From the NCBI GenBank assembly GCA_965207225.1, contig CBDBLV010000005.1, positions 1,504,001-1,568,000 of the forward strand: 64,000 nt of DNA. Reading direction: 5' to 3'. The translations under genes and the position numbers were made by a program. Origin of the DNA: Dehalococcoidia bacterium (lineage in GTDB: Bacteria > Chloroflexota > Dehalococcoidia > Plut-88900). The notes beneath the pieces are model-generated. The model saw only the letters and a program-made list of their open reading frames with translations, ran no database searches and was not told the DNA's origin. Every line of letters begins with the position of its first letter. Position 1 is the stretch's first letter. This document shows positions 38,718 to 40,370 of the stretch, piece by piece.

Positions 38718-40370
38718 ATGGCGACGAGGACCGGTAGGAAGACGGAAGGCAAGCGGGCGGCCATCTACGCCCGCGTGTCGGACAAGAGCCAGGACACGGA
38801 GGACAAGACCTCCATCTCCGAGCAGGTGTCCGACATGGAGGCCCACTGCGAGCGCAGGGGGCTGACCATCACGGCCCGCTACCAGGAGGTGGGCAGGGGA
38901 TGGTCGAAGAACCGCCCCGAGTTTCAGAGGATGCTGGCCGACGCCAGACGGGGCCGCTTCGATACCATCGTCTGCTGGAAGTCCGACCGGCTCAGCCGGG
39001 GCATGTACCCCGCTGCCGTCCTCATGGAGGTCGTCGAAGCGTACCAAATAGAGCTTGAGGCCGTCATGGACGCCATCGACATGAAGACCTTCGGCCTGAT
39101 GGCGGCCATCGGCAAAATCGAGTTGGACAACTTCCGTGAGAGGGCCTCGATGGGCAAGCGGGGCTCGGCCAAGCAGGGCCGCATCCCCACCAACAACGTC
39201 CCCTTCGGGTACAGGCTTGGCGAGGGCCGCAGGCCGGAGATCGTGGAGTCTGAGGCCGAGGTAATCCGCCGCGTCTTTCACATGTACGTCCGGGAGGACA
39301 TGGGGGCTCCAGCCATCGCCAAGCAACTGACCGCTGAGGGCGTCCCCACGCCCAGGGCCGTTGGGCGATGGTACGACCGCACCGTCACGCGCATCCTGGG
39401 ACTTGAGGCTTACAAGGGCACCTGGATTTTCGGCAAGCGCCGCCACGTCGCTACCGAGCAAGGTATGAGGAGGTACAACCGTCCCGAGGAAGAGTGGGTC
39501 GAGGTGCCCTTCCCGCCGGTGGTGGACGAGGAGATATGGGACCTGGCTCAGCAGGCCAAGAAGCAACGGCTGACCCATTCGGGCCGCAACACCAAGCTCT
39601 TCTATCTCTTGCAGCACTTGGTCAGGTGCGCCGAGTGCGGGTACCTGATGGGGTGCCGGGCCAACAGACGCCAGAGCACGAGGCGCAATGGCAAGACGTA
39701 CAGCTACAAACTGAAAGCTCCCCGCCGCTACTACAACTGCTACGGAGCGCTGAACGACGGCGTGAAGTGCCGGGAGCACCCCTATATCAGGGCGGAGCGG
39801 CTTGAGGGACTCGTGTGGGGCGAGGTCAAGAAGGTCCTGGAGAACCCCGGCGTCATCGTCGCCGGCATCGAGGCCATGGACTCCCGGGCGGACAACGGCG
39901 AATTGACCGAGGAGATCGCCATTGCGGAGCGGGAGCTGCACAAGGTTCAGATGGAGGAGGACCGGGCCATCCGACTCTATGTGTCGGGGAAGATCACCGA
40001 GAAGCAACTAGACCGCCAGCGCAAGTTCATCACCGAGCGTCTGGAGACGCTCCGGCTGAAGCTGCACGACTACCGGGCCAGGGAGATGGCCGAGGCGGAG
40101 AAGCGTGCCCTGGGTGAGCACATCGTCGAGTGGGCGCACCGGCTTGGCGGCAGGCTGGACCACCTGACCGACGAGGAGCGCAGGGAGGTGCTGCGGCTCC
40201 TCCTGGACGGGGCCACCATCGACCGGAGCAACAACGTCGATCTGACCCTTGCCATCCCCACCGAGGATGTCATGTCGATTGCAGGACAAAGTTCTCGGTC
40301 TCGTACCAGCAGAGCGTCGGGAAGTCGATCAGGTCGAGGCCGGTCTGCACCAGCCGGGGATGGCAGATGA
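38718..40370 (+). CDS. Large serine recombinase (integrase)
   Basis: 'AAIYARVS' catalytic Ser, 'RPEFQRML', 'DRLSR', 'PFGY', Zn ribbon 'CAECG...YYNC', coiled coil; RBS aggagg. Confidence 0.95.
   Translation: MATRTGRKTEGKRAAIYARVSDKSQDTEDKTSISEQVSDMEAHCERRGLTITARYQEVGRGWSKNRPEFQRMLADARRGRFDTIVCWKSDRLSRGMYPAAVLMEVVEAYQIELEAVMDAIDMKTFGLMAAIGKIELDNFRERASMGKRGSAKQGRIPTNNVPFGYRLGEGRRPEIVESEAEVIRRVFHMYVREDMGAPAIAKQLTAEGVPTPRAVGRWYDRTVTRILGLEAYKGTWIFGKRRHVATEQGMRRYNRPEEEWVEVPFPPVVDEEIWDLAQQAKKQRLTHSGRNTKLFYLLQHLVRCAECGYLMGCRANRRQSTRRNGKTYSYKLKAPRRYYNCYGALNDGVKCREHPYIRAERLEGLVWGEVKKVLENPGVIVAGIEAMDSRADNGELTEEIAIAERELHKVQMEEDRAIRLYVSGKITEKQLDRQRKFITERLETLRLKLHDYRAREMAEAEKRALGEHIVEWAHRLGGRLDHLTDEERREVLRLLLDGATIDRSNNVDLTLAIPTEDVMSIAGQSSRSRTSRASGSRSGRGRSAPAGDGR
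40273..40297. other. Right att site (arm tgtcgattgcaggacaaag plus core TCG), inside integrase ORF
   Basis: Inverted match to left arm; helicase homology breaks here. Confidence 0.88.

Follow-up and report, generated by a model that had tools for sequence, protein, structure and literature searches.

A large serine integrase of a Dehalococcoidia defense island whose gene appears to contain its own attachment site and to exchange a conserved C-terminal tail on integration

The Int protein of Mx8, a phage of Myxococcus, is a tyrosine recombinase, and the C-terminal change that it undergoes is larger than 22–24 residues. Because the attachment site (attP) of Mx8 is part of the int reading frame, the gene becomes recombinant and acquires another 3' end when the phage integrates, and the altered integrase is still active with changed properties (PMC6070905). 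Here we describe a comparable arrangement for a large serine recombinase (LSR), the integrase of a defense island in a 64,000-nucleotide stretch of DNA from a Dehalococcoidia bacterium of the Chloroflexota (assembly GCA_965207225.1, contig CBDBLV010000005.1, positions 1,504,001–1,568,000); this whole stretch is called the window, and positions are counted from its first letter. The island interrupts a helicase gene, and its integrase gene appears to contain attP and to encode one C-terminal tail when the island is integrated and another, conserved tail when it is excised as a circle.

The gene layout is that of Mx8, where the phage and prophage forms of the enzyme are called IntP and IntX: attP is located inside the integrase gene and integration provides a new 3' end. 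The integrase in the window is an LSR and not a tyrosine recombinase, however, and is thus Mx8-like in its layout while standing outside the Mx8 family. Furthermore, its attP consists of simple 25-nt half-sites that are both coding, and only 22–24 residues change. The archaeal integrases of the SSV1 type are also tyrosine recombinases with attP inside int; in these, the gene is split into two large parts and the integrated copy is inactivated. The island shares with them an att site inside the integrase gene, so that integration disrupts the gene, but 528 of the 552 residues stay in a single open reading frame (ORF) that ends in a stop. In the mycobacteriophages BPs and Brujita, attP lies in the repressor gene, the viral and integrated forms of the protein differ and a C-terminal segment controls its fate (PMC3694055). 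The split gene in these phages is the repressor, the removed segment is a degradation tag, and the integrase is a tyrosine enzyme that is tagged separately. In the island, by contrast, the split gene is the integrase and the layout is not one of integration-dependent immunity; no repressor gene was recognized in the island. The circle tail, which ends in ..GVKW or ..GVE, is also unlike an ssrA-type tag.

Among the serine integrases, the solved protein closest in sequence is SprA, the integrase of SPbeta (E 4e-19, residues 56–333), in which a helix of the directionality factor packs between the hinge of the coiled coil and DBD2, with F532 of the integrase beside it (PMC11722253). The sequence likeness is limited to residues 56–333 of the integrase in the window, and tail homology is not part of it. 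The extreme C-terminus of SprA has a part in directionality, and the modelled tail of the integrase in the window would touch the corresponding region; the C-terminus of SprA nevertheless does not change on integration, and a second protein, SprB, sets the direction. Like the island, SPbeta interrupts a gene. The skin element, SPbeta and the cyanobacterial fdxN element all resemble the island in that an LSR is located at the edge of a gene-splitting element, and precise excision of the island would restore the helicase frame across motif VI, as in other gene-interrupting LSR elements. These three elements are tied to developmental excision, whereas the target of the island is a multi-copy gene of a mobile element. 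None of the three is known to have attP inside the recombinase ORF. A search of the open-access full-text literature, limited in extent and no proof of absence, gave no serine-integrase precedent for attP inside int, and passages of a large LSR survey (10.1101/2021.11.05.467528) contained no serine-integrase example of the layout either. Within the literature searched, the precedents already known are all tyrosine-recombinase systems, and the serine-recombinase version would be new. How the direction of serine integrases is set is an active structural question.

Both the active site and the domain order identify the integrase as an LSR. The catalytic block ..AIYARVSD.., which includes the serine nucleophile S21, is invariant across 40 aligned homologs. 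In the Pfam search, the Resolvase domain (PF00239, residues 14–155, E 3.3e-24) is followed by the Recombinase domain (PF07508, residues 178–284, E 2.3e-20) and then by the zinc ribbon (PF13408, Zn_ribbon_recom, residues 297–371, E 2.4e-10), as expected of an LSR. A long coiled coil past the zinc ribbon is predicted by the AlphaFold2 model of P0019, a homolog in the 90% identity range, with helices at residues 377–392, 395–422 and 428–475 (predicted local distance difference test, pLDDT, 75–92). The source genome contains 19 integrase matches, four of which belong to the same family as the integrase in the window.

The integrase ORF extends through the right junction of the island, as seen in the ORF list, and the crossover could be positioned independently with an empty site (locus L165) in a genome of the same genus (G020), in which the helicase is uninterrupted and 96% identical. 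In the alignment to this site, the homology of the right half of the window ends at 40295 and that of the left half resumes at 18772–18766, and TCG is all that attL (18766–68), attR (40295–97) and the empty site have in common. Around TC, the 25 nt that precede it in attR and the 25 nt that follow it in attL are inverted copies of one another at 19/25 positions, including a perfect 9-nt arm (AGGACAAAG / CTTTGTCCT). This symmetry, centered on TC, is the anatomy predicted for the attP of a serine integrase: approximately 52 bp, made up of two 25-nt half-sites and the TC core, located inside roughly the final 35 codons of the gene. Such short and simple att sites, with imperfect inverted half-sites and a non-palindromic 2-nt core, are as expected of an LSR. 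The columns of the P' half-site are conserved at 0.78–0.89 among 54 related left ends. In 32 unique sequences of the main subfamily, the variation in this half-site has no codon periodicity, which is expected of a DNA site that is bound by protein. A crossover at TT (40292–93 / 18770–71), suggested by the 9-nt inverted arms, was ruled out by the empty site; TC lies 3 nt, or one codon, to the right and in the same frame.

Public sequencing runs, which were searched as contigs only (shares 0.05–0.39), are consistent with this position. In four runs the homology of several contigs to the window breaks at 40295/40298 and then continues leftwards into the sequence of an uninterrupted helicase. Since the sequence of these loose ends differs from the flank of the copy in the window, they represent other copies of the helicase and not excision products of the island. 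A contig of 123 nt spans attR with zero differences in three runs of one sample.

Joining the two ends at TC keeps the reading frame, and in the circle the integrase ORF would thus run into 18768–18847 and terminate at a TAG stop at 18845–47. The circle form has 552 amino acids (aa) and the integrated form 550 aa, and the two are identical through residue 528 (..DVMSIAGQSSRS). Thereafter the integrated form continues with RTSRASGSRSGRGRSAPAGDGR and a stop, 22 residues that are antisense to the helicase gene, and the circle form with the 24 codons of LSSNRHKKIRFSWTADLEATGVKW and a stop. The first-pass annotation, made from the letters of the window, had placed attP inside the integrase gene and proposed that integration swaps the integrase C-terminus. 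Both claims are borne out, as both half-sites are coding, the junction was fixed independently by the empty site, and the last 22–24 residues are exchanged behind a shared segment of residues 1–528; the segment 18769–18847 that it gave for the circle tail and the two tail peptides were correct to within one base, with the join at TC. The existence of two integrase isoforms, depending on the state of integration, is thus well supported by inference, and the recurrence of the in-int attP layout across the integrase family indicates that it is more than a product of chance.

On the evidence of sequence comparison, the circle tail is conserved as coding sequence. Lack of such conservation had been named in the first-pass annotation as an outcome that would speak against two meaningful isoforms; instead, at least three clades of the integrase have kept the tail at the protein level. 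Among the best 120 of 1375 integrase homologs, conservation ends at ..LTLAIPTEDVVSIAGQ, and this anchor is present in 117/120. The tails past the anchor in these 117 proteins are 9–149 aa long and can be grouped by target. The integrated tail type of the window occurs in 11/120 of the listed homologs, which are inserted in the same conserved helicase. In total, 118/120 of the listed homologs represent the integrated form with an accidental tail. In P0019 (550 aa) and P0087 (535 aa), both recovered through integrase similarity alone, a circle-type tail is contiguous with the integrase (..NRHNKVRFSWTADLEAS.. and ..SRHKKVRFSWAVDLDATGAA). A protein search with residues 505–550 of P0019 returned only P0019 among 16 candidates and is useless for counting circle forms.

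We also scanned one genome per species with a degenerate DNA pattern for R(F/Y)S(W/R)xxD(L/F)(D/E)A. The scan gave 55 loci, of which 50 are from Dehalococcoidia metagenome-assembled genomes (MAGs), two from Chloroflexota, one from Caldilineaceae, one from a Gammaproteobacteria-labelled MAG and one from a Rhizobium; the Rhizobium locus was dismissed as a chance match and L055 is doubtful. Left junctions with a tail of the form ..SS(L/P)SSN(R/Q)HKK(V/I)RFSW(A/T)(V/A)DL(D/E)A(T/S)(G/E)VE followed by a stop account for 53 of these, and the consensus of the circle tail is ..SNRHKKVRFSWAVDLDATGVE. The stop is located 12–15 codons past the Arg of RFSW in 43/55 sequences, 18–19 codons past it in seven and further away in five. 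No integrase was found directly upstream of the tail at the scan loci, which indicates that these are integrated elements in which the tail has been parted from its gene. Several genomes carry two to four tail sites each, at different targets and with intact tails.

In order to cover distant clades, a hidden Markov model (HMM) of the tail was compared with six-frame translations of the source genome and with the DNA upstream of distant integrases of the family. The matches were located on the expected strand and side of these integrases. A clade with 78% integrase identity has the tail SYPSSNRHNKVRFSWAVDLDAIEG, 41 kb from its integrase. In the source genome, a 71% paralog has the tail YRLSNNDKKIRYTWAAELEAN followed by a stop at 27.7 kb, with an in-frame join at TC in a Ser-Arg codon pair; an inverted-repeat search for the left junction of this paralog gave nothing, and the junction was located later by the tail HMM. 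The identical peptide, YRLSNNDKKIRYTWAAELEAN with its stop, was found approximately 25 kb away from a 70% integrase in another genome. The 70–71% clade thus keeps the tail motif even though its DNA has diverged.

The models of the tail structure are divided. The first-pass annotation had guessed that the circle tail resembles a beta-strand, which agrees with a complex prediction in which residues 290–514 were combined with a partner of residues 515–550, with a 41-row tail alignment and three controls. The prediction scored 0.67 (0.67, 0.67 and 0.66 in the runs) as compared with 0.00 for the best of the three controls; a mark of 0.67 is reached by 116/157 solved complexes and 2/215 mismatched pairs, a calibration that is rough here as custom alignments were used. 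At least 78% of the contacts agree between runs, and the pLDDT of the partner is at least 53. In this model, tail residues 21–32 pair with residues 504–514, such that NKVRFSWTADLE is antiparallel to the last strand (506–511), and the tail also contacts helix residues 357–384 and residues 465/469, which correspond to both ends of the coiled coil. An AlphaFold2 model of the last 75 residues, built with the tail alignment, likewise has a strand at positions 61–69 (KVRFSWTAD), with a mean pLDDT of 60. The guess of a strand is favored by these two models; in that of the whole protein, the tail is disordered. We know of no solved complex of a like kind. We also observed that MAFFT repeatedly aligned the last hairpin of P0019 (approximately residues 500–514, ..IDRSNNVDLTLAIP) onto its tail (532–546, ..NRHNKVRFSWTADL), both of which share the pattern xxV-x-(L/F)-(T/S)-(L/W)-A. 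This may reflect an internal repeat or an artifact of the alignment.

A number of observations weigh against the account of a conserved circle tail that is exchanged on integration. Because the pattern of the genome scan included a portion of the tail, conservation inside the pattern is circular, and a metagenome scan with a P'-arm pattern, independent of the tail pattern, gave 77 loci that are mostly unrelated, with three clear members and a diverged one in four copies. The tail frame is interrupted by a stop in 3/52 of the segments examined below, and for a 61% paralog with a tail-like ORF 33.5 kb upstream, the best guess of the junction is out of frame. P0019 was not located in 5 + 15 genomes or in viral contigs. 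No circle junction is present among the loose-end rows listed from the contigs of the public runs, a result without bearing on the absence of the circle. In the whole-protein AlphaFold2 model of P0019, the tail has a pLDDT of 27–33 and no secondary structure, in an alignment in which 2/40 rows contain the tail; the model of the last 75 residues is of low confidence, and the chains of the predicted complex are neighboring pieces of one polypeptide, which favors a pass. Furthermore, a stretch of approximately 80 nt past the circle stop (18860–18940) is conserved at 0.54–0.67 in the 54 left ends, as compared with 0.45 directly behind the stop and about 0.4 in the flanks of the host, which indicates some constraint at the DNA level at the left end; in the circle, this stretch would be the 3' untranslated region of the integrase, facing the convergent Vsr-Dcm gene. 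Finally, since the integrated tails are arbitrary and extend 9–149 aa past the anchor, the tail is not needed for catalysis if the elements excise. Taken together with the evidence in its favor, we nevertheless consider it very probable that the circle tail is functional in the integrase and under selection.

We also considered the possibility that the constraint on the stretch to the right of the core acts on DNA or RNA instead of protein, for example as an extended attP, an accessory site or a regulatory or terminator element, and that the open frame is incidental. LSR half-sites are constrained as DNA by definition, and both the core-proximal 25 nt without codon periodicity and the conserved stretch at 18860–18940 fit with this explanation. 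Past the 25-nt half-site, however, the variation is concentrated at third codon positions, with a mean column entropy of 0.41/0.37/1.09 at codon positions 1/2/3 of four codons outside the search pattern (H K K V) in 32 unique sequences of the main subfamily. Likewise, among 52 unique 84-nt segments, stops within 72 nt of the core were observed in three for the tail frame, as compared with eight and 24 for the other plus frames and 36, 21 and 18 for the minus frames, and the minus frame with the same codon periodicity as the tail is the one with stops in 21/52. The amino acid replacements in the tail are conservative (I/V/L, F/Y, D/E, S/T), and the sole length change is a 12-nt insertion (NRH-ESGH-KKI in L044, L075 and L076) that is in frame. 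Neither the retention of the motif in the 70–71% clade, with its diverged DNA, nor the contiguity of tail and integrase in P0019 and P0087 would be expected if the constraint acted on DNA, and no Rfam, promoter/terminator or tRNA match was obtained in the region 18500–19400 at the left end. Conservation at the nucleic acid level is for these reasons a very unlikely explanation.

Even less probable is that the island is a dead relic or that the junction is an assembly artifact, in which case the integrase would be a 3'-truncated pseudogene and the circle would never form. The region is crowded with mobile DNA, with group II introns and a transposase, and neither the circle junction nor an excision product of the copy in the window is among the contig rows listed. 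But attR is spanned by the difference-free contig in three runs of one sample, the intact integrase is 86–93% identical to 26 other listed proteins, a congener holds the empty site, and several genomes hold multiple such elements at different targets with intact tails. A more serious contender, although still an unlikely one in our view, is that the tail is the genuine C-terminus of the circle form and that the swap is a neutral by-product of the position of attP, with two isoforms that work alike. That any ending is tolerated is suggested by the arbitrary tails of the 117 anchor-bearing homologs in a family that is nonetheless widespread, and it would agree with the disorder of the P0019 tail in the whole-protein model and of the last 28 residues of the SPbeta integrase in cryo-EM maps (PMC11722253). 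A dispensable tail that is translated only from the circle should decay, however, whereas the frame, the position of the stop and the conservative nature of the substitutions are kept down to 70% integrase identity, and the complex model docks the tail at the base of the coiled coil.

The reading that we favor, by a small margin over the doubts that it raises, is that of a circle with a conserved integrase tail and a chromosomal copy with a tail supplied by the target, in a defense island inside a mobile helicase gene. The excised circle would encode a 552-aa integrase with a conserved C-terminal segment, and integration would cut the gene at codon 527, after which the ending is whatever the target supplies. 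In the model, the tail segment KVRFSWTAD would extend the last beta-hairpin by a strand and lie against helices at the coiled-coil base, a region that sets directionality in solved LSRs. The presence of the family at many sites with intact tails implies that the elements must cycle, with selection acting via repeated excision and re-integration. Excision would be performed by the tail-less chromosomal form, the ending of which is arbitrary, and the tail could be selected only in the circle. Most likely, the tail would serve the integration enzyme, by means of stability, an integration-competent posture of the coiled coil, site binding or insensitivity to an excision cofactor, and its loss on integration would leave an altered enzyme, probably with lower or cofactor-dependent activity.

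That the swap has a regulatory consequence has not quite an even chance in our estimate, and the built-in directionality or stability switch suggested in the first-pass annotation is reasonable but unproven. One more specific hypothesis, which we hold to be doubtful, is that the tail is a directionality latch: the RFSW strand, lying in the groove at the base of the coiled coil, which is where the directionality factors of other LSRs act, would lock the circle form to integration and make it deaf to the excision cofactor, and integration would delete the latch. The device may be shared by several Chloroflexota LSR families, since R(F/Y)SW tails are found at other junctions in the source genome.

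The coordinates of the features are collected in Table 1. The cargo of the island spans 19168–38291, in two gene blocks that are transcribed outwards from approximately 33.4–34.6 kb. It includes a Vsr-Dcm fusion, a GHKL-type restriction enzyme, a SMODS cyclase with a PsyrA-like neighbor, an FRG/pentapeptide protein (PDC-S15), a type IIG restriction-modification enzyme, an HKD and Snf2 helicase and a DUF1016/YhcG nuclease (PDC-S02). Eight of the 11 large ORFs match restriction-modification or other defense families and three match nothing; no directionality factor was identified among these three. We rejected a prophage origin of the island, as 0/11 of the large ORFs match a structural phage family in Pfam, and a search of viral contigs gave no relative of the integrase. 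The uninterrupted relatives of the target helicase are open frames of approximately 780–950 aa, and the gene is present in 67/401 sampled genomes of the class, with up to four matches per genome. Its neighborhood (15378–18765 and 40297–43616) encodes a DUF6094 methyltransferase, Prok-E2_D and a JAB-like protein. A multi-copy helicase with a conserved neighborhood suggests that the island is inserted in another mobile element. To the right of the target, we observed two ORFs for group II intron reverse transcriptases/maturases and one for a DDE transposase (43656–45374, 48858–50702 and 52879–54336, all on the minus strand).

Table 1. Positions in the window of the integrase gene, the attachment sites, the predicted tails, the island and the target gene.
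Feature	Position	Strand	Basis
LSR (integrase) gene, integrated state, 550 aa and stop	38718..40370	+	ORF list, Pfam, 1375 homologs
Crossover dinucleotide TC at attR	40295..40296	+	TCG common to attL, attR and empty site L165; center of attP symmetry; contig loose ends at 40295/40298
Crossover dinucleotide TC at attL	18766..18767	+	TCG common to attL, attR and empty site; attP symmetry
Putative attP P half-site, within the integrase ORF, encodes ..VMSIAGQSS	40270..40294	+	19/25 positions match reverse complement of P'
Putative attP P' half-site, would encode ..RSLSSNRHK of the integrase in the circle	18768..18792	+	symmetry with P half-site
Tail specific to the integrated form, 22 codons (RTSRASGSRSGRGRSAPAGDGR) and stop, antisense to helicase	40302..40370	+	ORF list, junction analysis
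Predicted tail specific to the circle form, 24 codons (LSSNRHKKIRFSWTADLEATGVKW) and stop TAG	18773..18847	+	conserved at 53/55 pattern loci, open frame, recurs in distant clades
Island body, 21,529 bp counting one core	18768..40294	.	junction analysis, Pfam and defense families
Helicase (target), N-terminal part, SNF2-like	40297..42162	-	ORF list, weak ResIII match
Helicase (target), C-terminal part, begins just before ..QASRRSWRIGQ	18123..18765	-	alignment to L165

Additional tail-like sequences were observed in the source genome. A second, degenerate tail-like ORF (RHKRNGKLRCSWAVDLGPFKLSWIPRQ and a stop) is located at 18952–19033, approximately 175 nt inside the left end of the island. It resembles the tails ..RHNSNGKFRYSWTVGLGSFKPYGR and ..NSNGKLRYSWTVGLGNLKPYRRS, each followed by a stop, at C4:810,507–810,590 (plus strand) and C2:~23,700–23,760 (minus strand), the former of which adjoins a serine-recombinase gene that is broken (..PQFRKMLDEASKSEAPFKEILI). 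These sequences have the look of another tail family in which the R(F/Y)SW core is shared. A pairing of the tail at C4:810.5 kb with the LSR at C4:871.8 kb was rejected, as the half-site symmetry comprises at most 12/22 positions and is unconvincing, and a P arm for this tail was not found in a search across the source genome.

The source genome also holds 14 further LSR genes, such as those at C3:57442, C4:871801, C5:130558 and C5:1036631. The other LSR families in this genome diverge directly past the conserved C-terminal motif (..DFVKSSPP / ..STVKSGG), and two of the proteins continue with ..RYWTRTSDL.., which we take to be the look of a translated tRNA gene. The ORFs of these families may also cross their att sites. 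In eight AT-richer metagenome contigs (L091, L102, L120, L135, L149, L152, L161 and L163), a P'-arm-like sequence is followed by another conserved short ORF, SLSSNRQH(S/Y)..DNREDY with a stop. These may represent another family of the same layout, or chance.

Serine integrases are prized in genome engineering because they act one way and are reversed only by a separate protein. [quoted passage not shown] As the integrases of this family in the databases are almost all in the integrated form, screens that synthesize them from integrated genomes would assay a protein without the conserved native end. The island itself would be an example of defense cargo that moves by insertion into the gene of another mobile element. 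Should the latch hypothesis hold, the chromosomal copy would represent the excision-competent form, cofactor-responsive or even cofactor-independent, and the gene would carry the direction of recombination in its own topology.

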